The position numbers and the translations under genes were made by a program. The notes under the pieces were generated by a model. That model worked only from the letters and a program-made list of their open reading frames with translations. It had not been told where the DNA came from and searched no databases. Source: Synechococcales cyanobacterium VAR_4_metabat_354 (GTDB taxonomy: Bacteria > Cyanobacteriota > Cyanobacteriia > Cyanobacteriales > Chamaesiphonaceae). From it: DNA of 10,302 bases. The stretch is from NCBI GenBank assembly GCA_031414775.1, contig JANOQI010000055.1:1-10302 (forward strand), read 5' to 3'. Below, piece after piece: positions 273-9,991 of the stretch; the first letter of the stretch is position 1, and the number at the start of each line of letters is the position of its first letter.

Positions 273-1463
273 TTAGAACCGGTAGGCAAAATTGATGCCC
301 ACATCAAAGCTGCTACCAGAAACAGATGAGCTACCTTTGAATCCGCCAGGACCGGAAACATCCAACGTGCCAGTCTTAGAAAAGTTGTAAGTACCGCTAA
401 GGCCAGCAATAAAGTCTGGAGAAATTTCATAATCGGCACCCACTAAGAGACCAATATTTGTTTCGTTGGTGTTGGTGTCAAAATTGCCAGCTTTACTAGA
501 GCCAGATGCAAATAATACTCTAGGGCCAATATATCCGCTGAGCTTTTTGTCAGCTGATTCAAAATCGTAAGTCACAGCTGCCCCATAAGCAACTCCAGCG
601 CCTGGCGTAAAGCCCACAGCTTCTGTGCGGGTAACAAATGAGATGTAACTGTTAGCCACAGTCAATGCAGTTTGACCCGCATTAGGATTAGTCAAAGCAT
701 TGTTGATTTGACTGGCGATCGTATCAGCTTGTGTATCGCTCAAAGTCACATTGTACGCGGTCTTAATTGCTGCTCTTTTTGCCACAGGAGTTAAGGCCGT
801 AAAAGTTGCTGGGTCAGTGGGATTTCCAATGGCATCAACCAAAATATTTTGTTCAGCAGTTCGGCTAGCAGGAGCCGCAGCCAAAGCTTCACTCGTGCGT
901 TTGGCAACATCATCAGCTTGCTGATCGTTCAAATTAAGATCAGTAAATAATTTCACCTGTGCTCTTTGCTGTGCCGGAGTCAAGGTAGTGAAGACAGGCA
1001 CAGGACCAGTTGTAGCAGCAATCAAAGCATTTTGTTCAGGAGTTCGAGTAGCCACAGGCTCGGCTAGAGCATCAGCTAACAGTGCATCGGCGTCTGCGTC
1101 AGTCAAAGTAAGAGTTGGATTTTGTTGGCGTACGATCGCTCTCTTCTGGTCTGGAGTCAAAAGAACTTTAGTATCAAAACTATTAGCAACACCACTTGCT
1201 ACAGCTTTACCAAAATCCCCACCACTAACATTAGGGGTATAACCAAACAGCACAATGGGTCTAAAAGATAGTGGTACACCTGGATTGGTAATCTTACCTT
1301 TAATACCAAAAGAAGTGCCACCACCACTGAACTCGATCGCTGGGCCTACCGAATTTAATTTCGTTTTGGATGCTTTTTCTTGAGCATTAGCACTACCAGC
1401 TATCAGAAGAGAAGAGAAGAGAAGAGAAGAGAAGAAAGCGCCACTAGACTTAATACGATTCAT
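273..1463 (-). CDS. Outer-membrane beta-barrel protein (predicted 8 strands) with Sec signal peptide and inserted helical-repeat domain, 396 aa
   Basis: ATG at 1463 gives MNRIK + hydrophobic core + ANA|Q signal peptidase I site. There are three amphipathic strands before the insertion (SVGPAIEFS, SFGIKGKI, LSFRPIVLFG) and five after it (VAYGAAVTYDF, LSGYIGPRVLF, IGLLVGADYEI, FIAGLSGTYNF, FDVGINFAYRF). The C-terminal Y-x-F is typical of BamA substrates. Confidence 0.85.
   Translation of the reverse strand: MNRIKSSGAFFSSLLFSSLLIAGSANAQEKASKTKLNSVGPAIEFSGGGTSFGIKGKITNPGVPLSFRPIVLFGYTPNVSGGDFGKAVASGVANSFDTKVLLTPDQKRAIVRQQNPTLTLTDADADALLADALAEPVATRTPEQNALIAATTGPVPVFTTLTPAQQRAQVKLFTDLNLNDQQADDVAKRTSEALAAAPASRTAEQNILVDAIGNPTDPATFTALTPVAKRAAIKTAYNVTLSDTQADTIASQINNALTNPNAGQTALTVANSYISFVTRTEAVGFTPGAGVAYGAAVTYDFESADKKLSGYIGPRVLFASGSSKAGNFDTNTNETNIGLLVGADYEISPDFIAGLSGTYNFSKTGTLDVSGPGGFKGSSSVSGSSFDVGINFAYRF
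654..1169 (-). repeat. Three diverged ~60-aa protein repeats within the barrel insertion
   Basis: Repeat 1: LTPDQKRAIV...LTDADADAL...ALAEPVATRTPEQNAL. Repeat 2: LTPAQQRAQV...LNDQQADDV...ALAAAPASRTAEQNIL. Repeat 3: LTPVAKRAAI...LSDTQADTI...AL. The LTP motifs start at aa 102, 161 and 224 (spacing 59 and 63). Confidence 0.85.
1405..1435 (-). repeat. Perfect pentanucleotide simple sequence repeat (CTTCT)6 in the signal-peptide coding region
   Basis: The plus strand is (AGAAG)6 plus A, 31 nt of perfect period 5. It encodes FFSSLLFSSLL (codons 10-20). Confidence 0.97.
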
Positions 1464-1784
1464 AATTTTGAGTTTAAAGGGGGTCTTTAAACACCATTCC
1501 CAAAATTTAAAAATTTTACACAAAAGCCCAGATATCTATGCAAGTTATTTCTTTAGCTGAGCGTGATCAATAATCCTGCTACTACGAAATATCACCTATC
1601 GATCAGTATTTACTTCTGAACCTGGACTGTCTTCGGAAAAACCAGCTTAAAACCAACACCCAACAAAGATCCCGGACTCTGTTAAGATATTGAAGATCAG
1701 CGTTAAGATATATCTCAATCTGCCGCGAACTGCTAAGGTTGAGACCCCCGACGTATTACACAATTGCTCATTCATAGCAGTTCT

Positions 1785-1790
1785 AGGAGA
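1785..1790 (+). promoter_or_regulatory. Shine-Dalgarno site for ado
   Basis: AGGAGA ends 10 nt before the ATG at 1801. Confidence 0.7.
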
Positions 1791-1800
1791 ATTACCACCC

Positions 1801-2496
1801 ATGGTGCAAATGGCAGCCAGTTTGGCACTTGACTTTCAAAGTGAAGCTTATAAAGATGCCTATAGTCGTATCAATGCGATCGTGATCGAGGGCGAAGACG
1901 AAGCTCACGACAACTACGTCAAGCTAGCCGACATGCTACCTGATCAAAAAGAAGAGCTAGTTAAGCTCTCCCGCATGGAACTCAAGCACAAAAAAGGCTT
2001 TGAAGCCTGTGCCAAAAACTTGAGCGTCGTCGCTGATCTTGGTTTTGCCAAAGAGTTCTTTGCCCCCCTCCACCGCAACTTTCAGATTGCCGCTGATGCT
2101 GGCAAACTGGTTACTTGCTTGTTAATTCAATCCCTCATCATTGAATGCTTTGCAATCGCCGCCTACAACATCTATATTCCCGTCGCTGACGATTTTGCCC
2201 GTAAAATCACCGAAGGCGTAGTCAAAGACGAATATATGCACTTAAACTTCGGCGAAGAATGGTTAAAAGCCAACCTAGATAGTGCCAAGGCCGAACTCCA
2301 AGAAGCCAACAAGCAAAATCTCCCTCTTGTGTGGAAAATGCTTAATCAAGTAGCTGGTGATGCCAAAGTACTGGGGATGGAAAAAGACGCTTTAATTGAA
2401 GATTTTATGATTGCATACGGTGAAGCACTCGGCAATATCGGCTTCAGTACCGGCGAAATTATGCGGATGTCTGCCTACGGATTAATGGGAGCCTAA
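1801..2496 (+). CDS. ado: Aldehyde-deformylating oxygenase, 231 aa
   Basis: Signature [17 protein letters not shown] and [43 protein letters not shown]; di-iron ExxH motifs (ELKH, EYMH); directly upstream of aar. Start placed at ATG 1801 because of the SD site and the typical ADO length. Confidence 0.98.
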
Positions 2497-2558
2497 GCAA
2501 AGCAACCACTGCTACTTTTCGATTCGAGTTCCACACTCCATTAGTTCAAAACCTACCC

Positions 2559-3590
2559 ATGTTTGGTCTCATCGGTCATCTCACCAGTTTAGAACACGCC
2601 AAAACTGTCGCTAAAGATTTAGGCTACCCAGAATATGCTGATCAGGGTCTAGATTTTTGGTGCAGCGCACCGCCTCAAACTGTCGATCACATCAAAGTAA
2701 CTAGCATCACCGGTCAGATGATCGAAGGCCAATACATAGAATCTTGCTTTTTGCCCGAGATGCTGGCCACCCGCCGGATCAAAGCCGCCATTCGCAAGAT
2801 TCTCAATGCGATGGCACATGCTCAAAAGCAGGGTATTGATATTACTGCTTTGGGCGGCTTCTCTTCGATCATTTTTGAAGAGTTTGACCTCAGCAACAAC
2901 AAACAAGTCCGCAATGTAGAACTAGACTTTGAGCGCTTTACCACCGGTAACACTCATACTGCCTACATTATTTGTCAGCAGGTCGAGCAGGGTGCACAAC
3001 AACTCGGCATCGATTTGACTACTGCTAAAGTTGCGGTCATCGGCGCCACTGGTGATATTGGCAGTGCCGTCTGTCGGTGGCTCACCACCAAAACAGCAGT
3101 CAAAGATTTACTCCTTGTGGCTCGCAATCAAGAACGGCTTCAAAATCTGCAAGGTGAGCTGGGCGGTGGTCAAATTCTTGATCTATCGATCGCTCTCGCT
3201 GAAGCCGATATCATTGTCTGGGTGGCCAGTATGCCCAAGGGAGTGAAAATCGACCCCAGCAAGCTCCAGCAACCTTGCTTACTCATTGATGGTGGTTATC
3301 CCAAGAATCTTGGCAGTAAAGTGCAGCACCCTCACGTCCATGTCATGAATGGTGGGATTGTCGAACATTCTTTGGACATTGATTGGAAAATCATGAACAT
3401 TGTCAGTATGGATGTACCAGCCAGACAGCTGTTCGCCTGTTTCGCTGAGTCCATGATTCTAGAGTTTGAAAAATGGCATACCAATTTTTCCTGGGGCCGC
3501 AATCAAATAACCGTGGCCAAAATGGAACAGATTGGCCAAGCTTCTGTTAAGCACGGCTTTCGTCCCCTGCTTTCTCTCGTTAGTGGCTAA
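2559..3590 (+). CDS. aar: Long-chain acyl-ACP reductase (aldehyde-forming), 343 aa
   Basis: N-terminus [24 protein letters not shown], nucleotide-binding [15 protein letters not shown], and catalytic Cys in FACFAE. Confidence 0.98.
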
Positions 3591-3617
3591 TTCGTTTACT
3601 TTATCCCCTGGATCGCT

Positions 3618-4598
3618 ATGGCAGTAGAACGCAAACCCCTGCTCCTGGACTTTGAAAAACCGCTCTTTGAGCTTCAGCAAAAAATTCAGAATATTCGCGA
3701 ACTTGCCGAAGAAAGTGGCGTCGATGTCTCTAGTCAACTCCAACCACTAGAGACCAAGTACGTGCAGCTGCAAGAAGAAATTTTCAGTAATCTAAATCCT
3801 TCTCAGCGCCTGCAACTAGCTCGTCACCCCCGTCGCCCTAGTACCCTGGACTATATTCAGGCGATTACTGATGAGTGGATTGAGTTGCATGGCGATCGCG
3901 GCGGTCGTGATGACCCAGCCTTAGTGGGAGGGATCGCCCGCCTAGATGGGATGGCTGTGATGATGCTCGGCCATCAAAAAGGTCGCGACACCAAAGATAA
4001 TGTTGCTCGCAACTTTGGGATGGCTGCCCCTAGCGGTTACCGTAAAGCCATGCGCCTTATGGAACATGCCAATCGGTTTGGAATGCCCATTTTAACTTTT
4101 ATCGACACCCCCGGAGCTTGGCCAGGCTTAGAAGGAGAAGAACTTGGCCAGGGAGAAGCGATCGCTTACAACCTGCGCGAAATGTTTTTATTAGAAGTAC
4201 CGATTATTTGTACAGTGATTGGGGAAGGCGGCTCTGGTGGAGCCTTGGGAATTGGAGTAGGCGACAGGCTACTGATGCTTGAACATTCCGTCTACACCGT
4301 AGCTACCCCCGAAGCCTGCGCCGCTATTCTATGGAAAGATGCTAAAAAAGCCCCCCAAGCAGCAGAAGCTCTCCGCATTACAGCTCAAGATCTAAAGCAT
4401 CTGAAGATTTTAGATCAAATTTTACCGGAGCCTTGGGGTGGTGCCCACGCCAACTCAATCAAAGCAGCAGAAACTTTGCGCCAGTCCCTAATTACTAATT
4501 TGAAAGAACTCCTCCAATTGAGCATCGCCGACTTGCAAGAACAGCGTTACCAAAAATTCCGGCAAATGGGAATCTTCCTAGAAGAAAAAACTCTGTAG
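3618..4598 (+). CDS. accA: Acetyl-CoA carboxylase carboxyltransferase subunit alpha
   Basis: [53 protein letters not shown] and PEACAAILW motifs. Confidence 0.98.
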
Positions 4599-4603
4599 CA
4601 TCA

Positions 4604-4644
4604 TGTTATAATTCCTCTAGCAATTATTAACAAAAGTTCACAAT
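4604..4644 (+). promoter_or_regulatory. Putative internal promoter for SDR-folE, with an HLR1-like direct repeat
   Basis: Consensus extended -10 TGTTATAAT at 4604-4612. It is followed by TTAACAAA-ag-TTCACAAT at 4627-4644, where each half is one mismatch from (G/T)TTACA(T/A)(T/A). Confidence 0.5.
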
Positions 4645-4677
4645 CGTAGAGTGATTTACTAATCTAAAAGATCGGCA

Positions 4678-5394
4678 ATGGCAAATAGAACAGCATTAAT
4701 TACTGGCGCAAGTAGTGGTATAGGCAAAGCCACCGCTTTAGCCTTTGCCAAAGCAGGCATCAATCTACTTCTAGTTGGTCGCTCCCAAAAGCGTTTACAG
4801 CCAGTATTAGCAGCAGCCACAGCAGCAGGGGTTCAGGTAAAAGCTTACGAAGTAGATCTTATCCAACTCGCTCTAGTCCGCTCACAAATCGCAGCAATTA
4901 TTAAGGACAATGGTTCTATAGATATCTTGGTTAATAGTGCCGGGACAGCATATACCAATCCGTTGATAGACACCCCCTTAACTGACTGGCAGAATATCAT
5001 TGACTTAAATCTGTCCAGTGTTTTGCAAGTGACACAAGGGGTATTGCCCCAAATGCGTCAGCAACGCTCAGGTAACATCATTAATGTAGTTTCAGTCGCT
5101 GGCCAACAAGTATTCCCAGACTGGGGGGCATATTCCGTAAGCAAATTCGGCCTCGTTGCTTTATCCAAAGCGCTGGCCATCGAAGAACGAGCTTACGGCA
5201 TTCGTGTTACAGCGATCTATCCTGGTTCAGTGAATACTCCTTTGTGGGATCAACAGCAGGTTCAGGCCGATTTTGATAGGTCAGCGATGCTCACAGCGGA
5301 AGCAGTGGCAGAATCGATTCTCTACAGTGCTAACGCACCACAGACTGCCACAATTCAAGAACTTACCATTATGCCCAGTGCTGGGACTTTCTAG
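4678..5394 (+). CDS. Classical short-chain dehydrogenase/reductase (probably NADPH-preferring)
   Basis: TGASSGIG, Arg after beta-2 (VGRS), NSAG and catalytic YSVSK; usual position between accA and folE. Confidence 0.93.
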   Translation: MANRTALITGASSGIGKATALAFAKAGINLLLVGRSQKRLQPVLAAATAAGVQVKAYEVDLIQLALVRSQIAAIIKDNGSIDILVNSAGTAYTNPLIDTPLTDWQNIIDLNLSSVLQVTQGVLPQMRQQRSGNIINVVSVAGQQVFPDWGAYSVSKFGLVALSKALAIEERAYGIRVTAIYPGSVNTPLWDQQQVQADFDRSAMLTAEAVAESILYSANAPQTATIQELTIMPSAGTF

Positions 5395-5424
5395 CTGGGC
5401 ATTATCATTCCTTTAACAATATCT

Positions 5425-6084
5425 ATGACTACCTCCAAACCCTCTATCAGACCCGATCGCAACACTAATTCCAGTGGCCAATCAGCGCAGGCAACTCATC
5501 AGAAACACAAGCACAATGATGACATGATGGCAGCAGTACGCACCATAATTCAAGGTGTAGGCGAAGACCCCGAACGAGAAGGGCTACTCAAAACGCCCAA
5601 ACGGGTTGCGGAATCCATGCGCTTTTTAACCAGTGGCTATGAGCAGTCCCTAGATGACATTATCAATGGTGCGATCTTTGATGAAGGTCACAATGAAATG
5701 GTTTTAGTTAGAGACATTACTTTTTTCAGCCTCTGTGAACACCATATGCTACCCTTTATGGGTCGTGCTCATGTCGCTTATATTCCCAACCAAAAAGTTG
5801 TTGGATTGAGCAAGCTAGCGCGAATCGTGGAGATGTTCTCTCGCCGGTTACAAGTACAAGAACGCCTCACCCGTCAGGTGGCCGAAGCCCTACAAGAAGT
5901 TTTAGAACCACAGGGAGTAGCAGTGGTAATGGAAGCTAGCCACATGTGTATGGTAATGCGCGGTGTCCAAAAGCCCGGTTCTTGGACTGTTACCAGTGCT
6001 ATGGTAGGAGCTTTTCAAGACGACCAGAAAACCAGAGAGGAGTTTTTAAACCTCATTCGTCATCAGCCAGCCTTCTTCGGATAG
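5425..6084 (+). CDS. folE: GTP cyclohydrolase I (type IA)
   Basis: [17 protein letters not shown], zinc-ligand motifs CEHH and [22 protein letters not shown]. Confidence 0.98.
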
Positions 6085-6114
6085 GAATAGCGAGCCAATA
6101 TCTGCGATTTTATA

Positions 6115-6145
6115 TACCAGCCAGCATTTTACAAGCTGGCTGGTA
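6115..6145 (+). terminator. Stem-loop after folE (terminator or 3' stabilising hairpin)
   Basis: Perfect 11-bp inverted repeat TACCAGCCAGC-9 nt-GCTGGCTGGTA, 30 nt after the folE stop. The U-tract is weak (AAATTTT follows). Confidence 0.6.
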
Positions 6146-6283
6146 AAATTTTAGCCCAGTTTGATATTCTCAAGGGTGCACATGGCATACTAGTGAGAAG
6201 TTAGCTTGTCATGGTGATCGATTAAGTAGAATACTCCAGTTAATTCGAGTCTGATAAATCACCCAATTTTCACTTCAGTGTAT

Positions 6284-7972
6284 ATGCTTGTTTGTCCCCA
6301 GTGCAGCTCGAACAATCCGCTCCATCACAAATTTTGCCAGAGGTGTGGTTTTTCTCTGGTTTGTCGTTGGGCCATAGTTGTCGATCATTCCCAAGATGAT
6401 GGGGAAACAACCATACCTCAACTAAACGATGGTCAGTTACCGGCTCGTTTATATCTGGGTGCTAGATATCAAAAACTCGACTTAGAAATCAAAGAATTAC
6501 CAGCACATACCACTCTAGTGAAAGTGCTGGACAGTTTACCCAGTCAGTCATCACCTCTACAAGAATTAATGAAGCAACAGCCTGTAGATCCTGATCCGGC
6601 CAGATTAGGACAGCTACCAGCTAATTTTCCAGAATGGGAGCTGTGGGAGCGGGGCGGCGTTAGCCAAGAAGCTCGGCCATACTTAGCCTTGCAACCATTA
6701 TTAGGTGAGCATATACCAAAGCTTTATGATGCCTGGCACCGCAATAACCAAGCGGTCTTAATTTTAGAAGCTAGAGACGGAGACACTACTCTTATCGATC
6801 GATGTCAAGAATTACAGCAGCTCCCATCCCAACTAGCTAACTGGTGCAATATACTATTGCGGCTTTGGGTTTATTTAGAACCCTGGGCAGTTAGATCAAG
6901 TTTGTTGGATTTAGATAATCTCTACGTTGACAATAACCAGCAAATTTATTGTCAACGACTCATCCCCGAAATAGTAACACAGCCTTTATCTCTGCAAGAT
7001 TTAGTAGATTTCTGGTTGAAAATACTACCAGATTCTAAGCTACGGTCATCTTTAGTCGAATTCATCAAAGAAAAAGAACACCTGACAGTCGAAAGCTTAA
7101 AGCAACATTTCCAGCAGATCTATGAGCACCCGGAAATCAACAGATCAACAGATAAAACTCTCGCACCAGTAACCGTCATCGGACTAGAAGCTGCTGCTGC
7201 TACTGATGTTGGCCAACAGCGAGACCACAACGAAGATTTTTACAGCATTGAAACTAACCACCGAATCAAACAAAATCCAGAGGGGGTAAATTCAGAATAT
7301 CAAGGTCTTTACATACTTTGTGACGGAATGGGGGGCCATGCAGCCGGAGAAGTAGCCAGCGCCATGGCTATCCAAAAACTACAAAATTATTGGGAAAAGC
7401 ACTGGCAGAATGTTCTACCCAGTGAAGAAGAAATTCAGCAAGCTATTTTTTTTACAAATCAGGCTCTATTTGAAATAAATCAAGACAAAGCCGGTAATGG
7501 CAGAATGGGTACTACTCTGGTCATGGTAATGGTACAAGATAACCAAATTGCCATTGCACATGTGGGGGACTCCCGCTGCTACATTTTAGAAACCAATGGT
7601 AGCCCAGTTCAAATTACGCTCGACCATGAAGTAGGGCAACGAGAAATCTTGCGCGGGGTAGAGCCAGAAATAGCTTACGGAAGACATGATTCGTACCAGC
7701 TCACCCAAGCGATTGGCCCTCGTGATGAAAACTCGATCGATCCAGAAGTCCAATTTTTCAGTCTCCGAGAAGACACGTTGATATTACTTGCTTCTGATGG
7801 CCTAACTGATCAAGATCTATTAGAGATTCATGGTGAAGAACTCCTCAGACCAATGGTACAGAAAGAAATCAGCTTATCAGTGGGAATCAATAAGTTAGTG
7901 GAATTTGGAAACAGTTATAACGGCCACGATAACATTACAGCTATTGCAGTTCTCGTTAACATAGACAAGTAG
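6284..7972 (+). CDS. PP2C/PPM-family Ser/Thr phosphatase with N-terminal zinc ribbon and degenerate kinase-like middle region
   Basis: N-terminal CPQC-x10-CQRC. PPM motifs TDVGQQRDHNED, CDGMGGH, MGTT, HVGDSR, ASDGL and GHDNIT from ~7181 onward. ATG 6284 is preferred over GTG 6278. Confidence 0.93.
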   Translation: MLVCPQCSSNNPLHHKFCQRCGFSLVCRWAIVVDHSQDDGETTIPQLNDGQLPARLYLGARYQKLDLEIKELPAHTTLVKVLDSLPSQSSPLQELMKQQPVDPDPARLGQLPANFPEWELWERGGVSQEARPYLALQPLLGEHIPKLYDAWHRNNQAVLILEARDGDTTLIDRCQELQQLPSQLANWCNILLRLWVYLEPWAVRSSLLDLDNLYVDNNQQIYCQRLIPEIVTQPLSLQDLVDFWLKILPDSKLRSSLVEFIKEKEHLTVESLKQHFQQIYEHPEINRSTDKTLAPVTVIGLEAAAATDVGQQRDHNEDFYSIETNHRIKQNPEGVNSEYQGLYILCDGMGGHAAGEVASAMAIQKLQNYWEKHWQNVLPSEEEIQQAIFFTNQALFEINQDKAGNGRMGTTLVMVMVQDNQIAIAHVGDSRCYILETNGSPVQITLDHEVGQREILRGVEPEIAYGRHDSYQLTQAIGPRDENSIDPEVQFFSLREDTLILLASDGLTDQDLLEIHGEELLRPMVQKEISLSVGINKLVEFGNSYNGHDNITAIAVLVNIDK

Positions 7973-7979
7973 CCCAGCA

Positions 7980-9122
7980 ATGGTGATTCTGACCCTCTTC
8001 GATGCAACTAGTGGGAATATTCTCAAACAGTGGCAATTTGACCAATCTCGACAAATTCGATTGGGCAGAGCACCTGAAAATCAGGTGGTAATCGATCACC
8101 CATTGGTATCGAGGTTTCATGCTGAGCTAGTATTTAACAATAGCTGGCAAGTCATCAATCATGGCGCCAACGGTATATTGATCAAAGATCAAACAGTAGA
8201 AAGAGCAGTTCTTACTCACAACACCGTGATTCAACTAGCCCCAAATAGACCACTAGTCAAATTTGAACAGGTCAGCACTCCTGAGATTTGTCAACATCAA
8301 GATAATCCACCAAATCAACTTTTTTGTATCCACTGTGGCAAACCAGTCAATGTTATCAAAACTGTTCGTGACTATCAAATCCTCAAAGTGTTGGGACAAG
8401 GCGGCATGGGCACCACCTATTTAGCCTGGACAGGTCAAGAATTATTAGTACTTAAAGAAATGAATGCCGATATAGCTCATCACGCCAAAGCACAAGAGTT
8501 ATTTGAACGAGAAGCAAAAATTCTTAAAACGCTGCAACACACTGGAATCCCTAAATATCAAGATTTTTTCTGGGAAGCAGGACAACGCTACCTAGCAATG
8601 GAATTAGTACATGGTCAAGATCTAGAACATTATGTCTACCAACGTGGTCCAGTAACTTTAACTCAAGCTATCAACTGGATGATCCAACTCTGTCGAATTT
8701 TGTCATATATTCACAGCAAACAACCGCCCTTGATTCACCGCGATGTCAAACCAGCTAATTTATTGGTTACTAATATCGATCGGCAGATTTTCTTGATTGA
8801 TTTTGGAGCAGTAAAAGAAATTGGATCAATAGGCAGTACTCGCATCGGGGCACCTGACTATATGGCTCCTGAACAAAACCAAGGCAAGCCAGTGGTTGAG
8901 TCTGATCTCTATGCGATCGGGCCAACAATCATATTTTTGACAACTGGCCGAAATCCTGGCGAATTTCTTCAACTGAATAAAGATGGCTACCAGTTCAACC
9001 TGGCCAATATTCCGACTATTACACCAACAGTTGCCAAATTAATCCACCAAGTAACGGCAAATCGAGTGATCGATCGATATCCAACAGCACTAGATTTATC
9101 TCAAGCTTTAGCGCGTTGCTAA
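7980..9122 (+). CDS. FHA-domain Hanks-type Ser/Thr protein kinase
   Basis: FHA motifs LGR, VSRFHA and GANG; Cys/His linker CQH...FCIHCG (8289-8339); intact kinase motifs GQGGMG, VLK, HRDVKPAN, DFG and APE. Starts 7 nt after the phosphatase stop. Confidence 0.95.
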   Translation: MVILTLFDATSGNILKQWQFDQSRQIRLGRAPENQVVIDHPLVSRFHAELVFNNSWQVINHGANGILIKDQTVERAVLTHNTVIQLAPNRPLVKFEQVSTPEICQHQDNPPNQLFCIHCGKPVNVIKTVRDYQILKVLGQGGMGTTYLAWTGQELLVLKEMNADIAHHAKAQELFEREAKILKTLQHTGIPKYQDFFWEAGQRYLAMELVHGQDLEHYVYQRGPVTLTQAINWMIQLCRILSYIHSKQPPLIHRDVKPANLLVTNIDRQIFLIDFGAVKEIGSIGSTRIGAPDYMAPEQNQGKPVVESDLYAIGPTIIFLTTGRNPGEFLQLNKDGYQFNLANIPTITPTVAKLIHQVTANRVIDRYPTALDLSQALARC

Positions 9123-9131
9123 TTTAGATGC

Positions 9132-9140
9132 TGTTACAAT
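9132..9140 (+). promoter_or_regulatory. Putative extended -10 promoter element for def
   Basis: TGTTACAAT (TGn + TACAAT) in the AT-rich spacer, 63 nt before the def ATG. Confidence 0.45.
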
Positions 9141-9203
9141 TAAGTGTGATGCATAAAACTCTATTAGCTAGCACTTTCTTACTAGCATAAGATAAATAAT
9201 CCT

Positions 9204-9779
9204 ATGGCTGTTCAGATTTTAGTTGAAAAGAAAAAAATAGATAAACCTCCACTAATTATTCACTTGTTAGGCGATAAAACACTCAGGCAAGCTGCCAAAA
9301 GAATTAGTAAGGTAGACGATGAATTACGGCAAACCGTTCGAGAGATGCTGCAAACAATGTACAGCTCTGACGGCATTGGCTTAGCAGCACCGCAAGTGGG
9401 AATTCATAAACAACTGATCGTAATAGATTGTGAACTAGAAAATCCTGCAACACCACCGATAGTATTAATTAATCCAGAAATCAAGAGCCATAGTCAATCC
9501 TTTTGTAAAGATCAAGAAGGCTGCCTAAGCATTCCAGGTGTATATATGGATGTAGAACGCCCAGAACAAGTAGAAGTCAGCTATAAGGACGAGCATGGTC
9601 GTCCACGAACACTCAAAGCTGATGGCCTATTAGCTAGAGCAATCCAGCATGAAATGGATCATCTACAAGGAGTATTATTTGTGGATCACATTACAGACAG
9701 TCTGACTCTTACTGAAGAACTAAAAAAGAAAGGCTTTTCTATCCAAGCAGTTCAACCCATCAGCAACGGAGCTAAATAG
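9204..9779 (+). CDS. def: Peptide deformylase
   Basis: All three PDF motifs are present: GIGLAAPQVG, EGCLS and QHEMDHLQG. Confidence 0.98.
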   Translation: MAVQILVEKKKIDKPPLIIHLLGDKTLRQAAKRISKVDDELRQTVREMLQTMYSSDGIGLAAPQVGIHKQLIVIDCELENPATPPIVLINPEIKSHSQSFCKDQEGCLSIPGVYMDVERPEQVEVSYKDEHGRPRTLKADGLLARAIQHEMDHLQGVLFVDHITDSLTLTEELKKKGFSIQAVQPISNGAK

Positions 9780-9784
9780 CTAAT

Positions 9785-9991
9785 ATGGCAACTTATACTC
9801 CTTTGAGTAGTTTGTGTTTATTGGGTGCGTGTATATCCGCTATTGCAGCTGTTGGTTCAGTTTTTGAGCTAAGCTCAGGAACACCAGAATTAGGTGTTTC
9901 CATAACAAGTGGAATTTTGGCGGTCAGCATTCCACTATGTACCGGCCTGTTTTACATAGCTGTCCGCAGCTCTAACGAAGCTAATAAGTAA
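9785..9991 (+). CDS. Small two-helix membrane protein of unknown function, 68 aa
   Basis: Starts 5 nt after def. Two hydrophobic segments (LCLLGACISAIAAVGSVF; ITSGILAVSIPLCTGLFYIAV) flank ELSSGTPELG. Confidence 0.75.
   Translation: MATYTPLSSLCLLGACISAIAAVGSVFELSSGTPELGVSITSGILAVSIPLCTGLFYIAVRSSNEANK

Follow-up and report, generated by a model that had tools for sequence, protein, structure and literature searches.

Phase variation driven by repeats is a textbook feature of pathogens adapted to a host. A perfect pentanucleotide repeat within the signal-peptide codons of a cyanobacterial gene raises the question of whether a surface protein of a free-living cyanobacterium is switched on and off in the same manner. 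The gene lies in the window, by which we mean the whole 10,302-nucleotide stretch of Synechococcales cyanobacterium VAR_4_metabat_354 DNA that was analysed (Table 1). The original prediction of a contingency locus on a surface protein is supported by natural ON and OFF alleles and by different repeat units at the same site in other lineages, and we consider it probable that the locus is a simple-sequence contingency (phase-variation) locus that has evolved repeatedly.

Table 1 Features of the locus and its surroundings in the window
Feature	Position	Strand	Basis
Gene for predicted 396-aa outer-membrane protein P0001 (signal peptide, eight-stranded β-barrel, large loop-2 insert, C-terminal ...FAYRF)	273..1463	-	Translation, AlphaFold2, structural matches, weak Pfam barrel matches
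Signal-peptide codons (27; cleavage predicted after ...ANA)	1383..1463	-	Sequence
Pentanucleotide tract T(CTTCT)6, putative frame-setting switch, now ON	1405..1435	-	TRF, genome repeat scan, length variants in relatives
Barrel strands 1–3 (residues 38–75)	1239..1352	-	DSSP on model
Helical repeat domain between strands 3 and 4 (residues 76–288)	600..1238	-	Model, DNA repeats
Barrel strands 4–8 (residues 289–396)	276..599	-	DSSP on model
Divergent intergenic region, shared with the alkane-synthesis genes	1464..1800	.	Same arrangement in G001 and G007
Aldehyde decarbonylase (context only)	1801..2496	+	PF11266, E 5e-122

A promoter scan of the divergent intergenic region found no sigma-70 consensus site and was uninformative. 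In positions 1801–9991, the decarbonylase gene is followed by what we take to be genes for acyl-ACP reductase (an NAD(P)-binding reductase assigned from gene order), accA, a short-chain dehydrogenase, folE, a PP2C phosphatase, an FHA kinase and peptide deformylase. Small gene pairs, presumably toxin–antitoxin modules, adjoin several orthologues of the repeat-bearing gene (L002:2434-2967, L003:2230-2859, L004:1703-2655 and L006:2755-3518).

A frame-setting repeat in a signal peptide

TRF finds a single perfect array in the window (period 5, 6.2 copies, 100% matches). Read on the minus strand within the open reading frame, it encodes F-F-S-S-L-L-F-S-S-L-L, which makes up the greater part of the hydrophobic core in signal peptide MNRIKSSGAFFSSLLFSSLLIAGSANA, with QE following the predicted cleavage site. 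TRF and translation thus agree with the earlier description of a perfect, in-frame (CTTCT)6 tract coding for this core. Residues A27 and Q28 at the cleavage site are invariant in 34 of 34 aligned homologues. The start codon must lie upstream of the tract, as no in-frame ATG occurs between the tract and the cleavage site.

Tract alleles constructed in silico leave the frame open only at 3, 6, 9 and 12 units, in agreement with the predicted rule that nothing but three-unit steps keeps the gene ON. Specifically, the computed 5-unit allele ends in ...SSDSW and a stop codon, the 7-unit allele ends in ...SSLLF and a stop codon, and the 3-unit allele specifies a normal 22-residue signal peptide. A GTG codon in the mature frame of the 5-unit allele could yield a leaky product lacking the charged N terminus.

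The tract is real and is more than chance would produce. When the 3.56-Mb genome that carries it (G000) was scanned for perfect repeats of period 1–9, the tract proved to be the sole pentamer run exceeding 16 nt, and just one perfect run of any of these periods was longer. Base composition predicts 7e-10 such tracts, and the peptide would be encoded by these particular codons with a probability of 2.7e-9, both under nulls that ignore a single 15-nt duplication. Six units is a short tract. A long pure repeat in a 5′ coding region, with a unit that is not a multiple of three, is one of the features of simple-sequence contingency loci, and the array has it.

The longest simple repeat of the same genome is a perfect (TCACTG)7.5, in frame in a 2,092-aa open reading frame (G000:C16:86695-86739). 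A C9 run (G000:C41:142072-142080) stops 8 nt short of the ATG of what, judging from a motif, we take to be a glycosyltransferase gene, and A10 runs lie in open frames of 674 and 157 codons (G000:C33:47735-47744 and C46:168934-168943). Loss of mismatch repair was rejected as a cause of repeat instability, given that both mutS (865 aa) and mutL (573 aa) have open frames. Loops of 5 nt are expected to escape mismatch repair.

A predicted barrel with a variable surface domain

An AlphaFold2 model of P0001 built on a 34-sequence alignment (mean pLDDT 84.9) has eight strands (residues 38–75 and 289–395), with a helical block separating strand 3 from strand 4. The predicted eight-stranded barrel is further supported by a wide structure search, which placed a designed barrel on top, followed by natural eight-stranded outer-membrane barrels. 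The model aligns with OprF-N (Z 15.7, rmsd 2.6, 134 aligned), OmpW (Z 15.4, rmsd 3.3, 163 aligned), the Thermus major outer-membrane protein 3dzm (Z 15.2, rmsd 3.9, 169 aligned), OmpA (Z 14.5, rmsd 2.3, 128 aligned), NspA (Z 14.1, rmsd 2.9, 140 aligned) and Opa60 (Z 8.8, rmsd 3.9, 108 aligned). Foldseek returned no match at E≤0.001, and a PDB sequence search returned one row (E 0.35). The Pfam family PF02462 (Opacity) has no match to P0001 at E≤1 and is weakly matched by 30 of the 34 aligned homologues at E≤0.01 (best 1.5e-7), with P0069 scoring 21.9 bits against a cut-off of 21. Together, the barrel fold, the signal peptide and the terminal Phe point to an outer-membrane location for the 369 mature residues.

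Counted from the C-terminal Phe by barrel topology, the helical block (~210 aa) would be extracellular loop 2. This insert consists of ~60-residue repeats and ranges from 34 to 650 aa across homologues. Its DNA carries a repeated segment (832–891/1015–1074) and three 23-nt copies spaced 177–189 nt apart. Folded alone, the domain has a pLDDT of 49.7, and a search of the Atlas gave no usable match to it. Among homologues, P0003 has short in-frame duplications (KGKIKIT and ILVDILV), and loop 2 has grown to 485 residues in P0004 and 650 in P0069. Two candidate relatives, P0113 and P0125, were discarded as unrelated (ankyrin and other). In X11, the one RNA run among those listed, 0.07 of the words were present.

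Different repeats occupy the same site in relatives

In the congener G001, the orthologue beside the decarbonylase gene carries two CTTCT units and is frameshifted (OFF); it reads MNRIKSSAALFSSDSW before a stop codon, and the rest of the open reading frame is intact. Orthologues of the Chamaesiphon type, which represent a second genus (named homologues are from Chamaesiphon sp.), instead carry (CATA)n from codon 4–5, the same place as the CTTCT tract. These CATA alleles comprise 16.2 units (G015, OFF), 14.2 units (G042, ON), 10.2 units (G043, OFF), 7.2 units (L052, OFF) and 2.8 units (L053, ON). From protein records, P0142 and P0136 read as ~5 CATA units, ON, and P0046, P0010, P0137, P0083 and P0062 as degenerate forms. 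L050 and L051 carry interrupted, in-frame versions of the CATA run, with a mature coding sequence that is nearly that of L053 (dS 0.03), and G021, L055 and L056 are intact orthologues without a repeat run.

A further unit, CTCTA, is present as two copies in G003, which is OFF. The protein P0102 is identical to G003 at 55 of 58 residues, and P0102 and P0145, which fall in one 90% cluster, are distinguished by precisely LLYST, the sequence that three additional CTCTA units would encode. Their sequences, VSTLLYSTAA and VSTLLYSTLLYSTAA, would correspond to 4 and 7 CTCTA units. As the (CTCTA)3 pattern occurs in 0 of 39 family genomes, these longer alleles are read from protein sequence.

Sixteen long-form copies have visible 5′ DNA, coming from eight genomes, six of seven metagenome loci and two of four sequencing runs, and including the near-duplicates L050/L051, L055/L056 and X5/X6. 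Eight are in frame, seven are frameshifted at the repeat and one (G007) is deleted. L054, the 5′ end of which is cut by a contig end, is outside this tally, and L042–L049 duplicate other loci and were not counted again. Five of the six non-duplicate frameshifted alleles, few as they are, fall one unit short of an open length, with G003 alone one over (this count draws on L005, L031, L032, L052, L002 and runs X5 and X6). Internal-Met starts chosen by gene callers (MAAVTAS...) were rejected as proof of an OFF state; P0011 starts there, yet L032 has the same N-terminal peptide in frame.

The CTTCT pair, G003 and the CATA group fall on separate branches of a protein tree (14 rows, midpoint root). 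Because CATA and CTTCT differ in unit and position, the repeat must have originated at least twice; CTCTA could represent a third origin or be related to CTCTT. The putative switch would have arisen at least twice, and probably three times, in one gene within one cyanobacterial family, probably the Chamaesiphonaceae.

Distribution of the gene and of its repeats

The protein family was matched in nine of 16 family genomes and, at E≤1e-15, in none of 284 genomes sampled from other families of the order. No relative was found in viral contigs, nor any longer fused form among proteins of 955–2,725 aa, the latter being weak evidence. The long form is present in eight of 39 family genomes, with a single copy in G000, and this restricted distribution indicates that the gene is dispensable.

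Runs of (CATA)5 occur in four of 39 family genomes, at one site each, and three of the four sites are in the repeat-bearing gene; because their carriers are kin, these three count as one origin. The fourth, a (CATA)13 run at L059:1499-1552 (G024:C120), lies ~200 nt upstream of a PEP-CTERM-type surface-protein gene and is possibly a promoter-type switch. Its flanks have no second copy in the 39 family genomes.

Runs of (CTTCT)4 or longer are found in four of 39 family genomes at five sites, of which four, in three other genomes, are outside the repeat-bearing gene. These other runs, of 4–7 units (L087:1501-1545, L088:1501-1535, L089:1501-1520 and L091:673-692, all from the second genus), adjoin a dispersed element, in part palindromic, that begins GAGACGCT or GAGAGGCT and that may be akin to the small dispersed repeats of cyanobacteria, a likeness that a literature search did not confirm. 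Given that all four adjoin this element, CTTCT runs can evidently grow without a switch role.

As a comparison by repeat length only, 14 paralogous barrels that lack the helical insert have no run longer than 14 nt in the 5′ stretch scanned, and whole-locus repeat scans agree; automatic signal-peptide labels were set aside because they were wrong for some paralogues (L009, L011, L035 and L039 have an in-frame Met). Two paralogues, L033 and L037, are likewise broken and carry no repeat. G000 itself has four weak small-barrel paralogues and no other long pentamer run.

Constraint on the barrel and decay of some copies

Substitution patterns indicate that the barrel has been under sustained constraint. 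Barrel dN/dS values are 0.02–0.12 in all 22 pairs shown, including G000–G001 (0.06) and three OFF–OFF pairs (0.06, 0.08 and 0.11). These low values imply that, for most of their past, OFF lineages had a working gene, although pairwise dN/dS cannot date a recent frameshift or exclude a very recent one-way inactivation. Four of the five fully visible OFF genes are intact to the C terminus, the exception being G003. Loop 2 gives dN/dS values of 0.15–0.58 in 21 of the 22 pairs, highest in pairs with L052, and the remaining pair has no amino-acid change. The two parts of the gene can also have discordant histories: L050 and L053 have roughly ten differences in the barrel and one in the loop, and G021 displays the reverse, a pattern that suggests domain exchange.

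Several copies carry further damage. G007 (L003:1495-2226) keeps the promoter and start of its orthologues, but the sequence from codon 2 to a point within loop 2 is deleted, which closes the frame and removes the 5′ third of the gene. G003 contains an additional TAA, P0102 and P0145 are disrupted downstream, and the signal peptide of X5 bears the change G23D (P41S is in both X5 and X6). Some copies are therefore dying.

Such damage raises the most serious alternative, which is one-way decay at a mutational hotspot. Under this explanation the gene can be spared or carries a cost, repeats are tolerated in signal peptides, frameshifts are simply the commonest first step towards a pseudogene, no OFF allele reverts and the tracts experience no selection. 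The damaged copies and the patchy presence of the gene are as decay would predict, and so is the higher whole-gene dN/dS of OFF–OFF pairs (0.25–0.35) relative to the ON–ON pairs of G042 with L050, L051 and L053 (0.10–0.11). The available portion of one study also attributes the tolerance of repeat indels at protein termini to structural reasons, and describes N-terminal repeat enrichment as strongest in pathogens (PMC3315296). However, the excess dN/dS of OFF genes sits in loop 2 and not in the barrel, and decay does not explain the expansion to 10–16 pure units, the in-frame 14-unit allele, the different units at one site or the concentration of the family's long CATA runs in the repeat-bearing gene. 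We therefore consider decay improbable as the full account, and favour a contingency locus some copies of which are being lost.

Tract length in the closest relatives

Near-identical DNA was sought in the contigs, rather than the raw reads, of sequencing runs, and four of the 20 runs listed were compared (X1, X4, X5 and X6). Two contigs, both from one study that differs from the possible source of the window, span the tract: X5 has 496 letters where the window has 501, with three substitutions, and X6 has 461 where the window has 466, with two. Neither has a gap outside the masked repeat zone (1398–1442), so the 5 nt must be missing inside it, a conclusion reached by letter-count arithmetic as the aligner had discarded a gap row at the repeat as likely false, a point that tells against the count. 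The simplest reading is that both alleles have five units; any 5-nt loss would be OFF. The X1 and X4 contigs break in the tract and were left uncounted because shared microsatellite words fit these breaks as well as mixed alleles do. Tract length is thus not fixed at six units (five in X5 and X6, two in G001), and the CTTCT-lineage orthologue does not encode the same peptide through synonymous interruptions. With the start codon also placed upstream of the tract, none of the three outcomes that would have refuted the original prediction occurred. At the level of contigs, unit number varies among near-identical strains and relatives, and both ON and OFF frames are seen.

Assembly error or PCR stutter could in principle mimic such variation by miscounting units, in which case the OFF alleles would be errors and the real genes all in frame. 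All records are metagenome assemblies, two contigs break in the tract and gap rows at repeats are mostly flagged as false. However, the 2-unit (13 nt) and 5-unit (~26 nt) tracts are shorter than the 31-letter word, so words reaching both flanks should exist in the reads, and words bridging a 26-nt tract should not arise from a 6-unit allele. The same 5-nt loss was recovered in both runs, at depths of 10.1 and 5.2, and miscounting cannot create different units in different lineages. We regard an artefactual origin as very unlikely.

Equally remote, for the tract in the window only, is the proposal that an ancestral tract of three units underwent a neutral, in-frame duplication of 15 nt with no effect beyond a longer hydrophobic core. 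It accounts for six units in one event (3 + 3) from a normal signal peptide but not for the single-unit changes that produce the 2- and 5-unit alleles, and it ignores the CATA and CTCTA parallels. Such a duplication may instead mark the birth of the 6-unit tract within a contingency locus.

Relation to known repeat-driven switches

The closest parallel is with the opa genes of Neisseria, which, in the available text of PMC3960869, are described as encoding eight-stranded proteins of 27–31 kDa with CTCTT leader repeats, switching at ~1e-3 and hypervariable loops 2 and 3, in 3–11 copies in pathogenic species and 1–2 in commensals. To the extent of that description, the locus resembles opa in its pentamer (CTTCT is a rotation of CTCTT) in leader codons and in its ON/OFF frameshifting. 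The two also share an eight-stranded barrel, four surface loops, a hypervariable loop 2 and loop mosaicism. The locus departs from opa in residing in a free-living cyanobacterium, in its single copy in G000 (comparable only to commensal Neisseria), in a loop 2 that forms a helical repeat domain of 150–650 residues and a protein size that differs accordingly, in a conserved loop 3 (part of the barrel region with low dN/dS), in the three repeat units used at one site across lineages, and in a structure closer to OprF, OmpW, OmpA and NspA than to Opa60. Opa proteins bind CEACAM or heparan sulfate receptors, and a freshwater cyanobacterium would not be expected to have a host of that kind. Because size, loop pattern and copy number do not fit, the locus is not classified as Opa. 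The predicted 'Opa-style' character thus holds for mechanism and fold class and fails for family membership.

Other comparisons are more distant. Tetranucleotide contingency loci are reported for Haemophilus influenzae and Neisseria meningitidis in the available portion of PMC3315296, and in the (CATA)n orthologues a tetranucleotide is likewise repeated immediately behind the start codon, some lengths being ON and others OFF; unlike those species, in which such loci are many, each family genome with a long CATA run has one. The OmpA/OmpW/NspA/TtoA class (Pfam OMP_b-brl and Opacity) has the same eight-stranded fold but not the large helical loop-2 insert. Heptamer (STRR-type) repeats of cyanobacteria are also short tandem repeats, and heptamer runs are present in the relatives' loci too; however, STRR-type repeats are genome-wide, mostly non-coding and, in the text available from PMC4692102, judged unlikely to be phase switches, whereas the CTTCT tract is unique in its genome and lies in a signal peptide.

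In line with the earlier suggestion that the locus has no cyanobacterial equivalent, no described phase-variation repeat switch of a cyanobacterium was found in the literature searched, which was mainly open access. In the accessible text of PMC8262939, phase variation in cyanobacteria 'may occur', and a term search of the accessible text of PMC9716671, PMC2984593 and PMC6105098 yielded nothing relevant.

A model for switching and its implications

If the locus works as a contingency locus, slipped-strand mispairing would add or remove repeat units in the signal-peptide codons. One length in three would maintain the frame and yield an exported eight-stranded barrel that displays the large variable helical domain on the cell surface, and other lengths would stop translation within ~30 codons, such that a population would hold cells with and without the surface protein. 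Some lineages would have lost the switch or locked it ON through interruptions. The agent of selection would fluctuate, and is most likely recognition by phages or grazers traded against attachment. We infer that switching is reversible, and infer likewise its rate and selective agent; the large variable surface domain, the frequent OFF states and the outright losses fit a protein that phages or grazers target and that otherwise serves the cell, perhaps in attachment.

A more ambitious reading, which we hold tentatively and at slightly less than even confidence, is that stream and sediment cyanobacteria of this family possess, on one surface protein, an Opa-like double system driven by phages or grazers rather than by immunity. 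It would combine a reversible repeat switch, with three independent origins, three units in one run of signal-peptide codons and a cycle of birth, expansion and locking, with antigenic variation of loop 2 through gain, loss and recombination of its repeats.

Phage resistance in cyanobacteria is described, in the available part of PMC12507012, as arising from costly loss-of-function mutations in surface genes, and a reversible switch, if true, would be a different strategy. The repeated origin of different repeats at one site would offer a rare natural test of whether mutability is itself selected. The locus also marks an unstudied surface protein as a likely target of phages or grazers, in which the ratio of ON to OFF cells would be directly readable from metagenomic reads.
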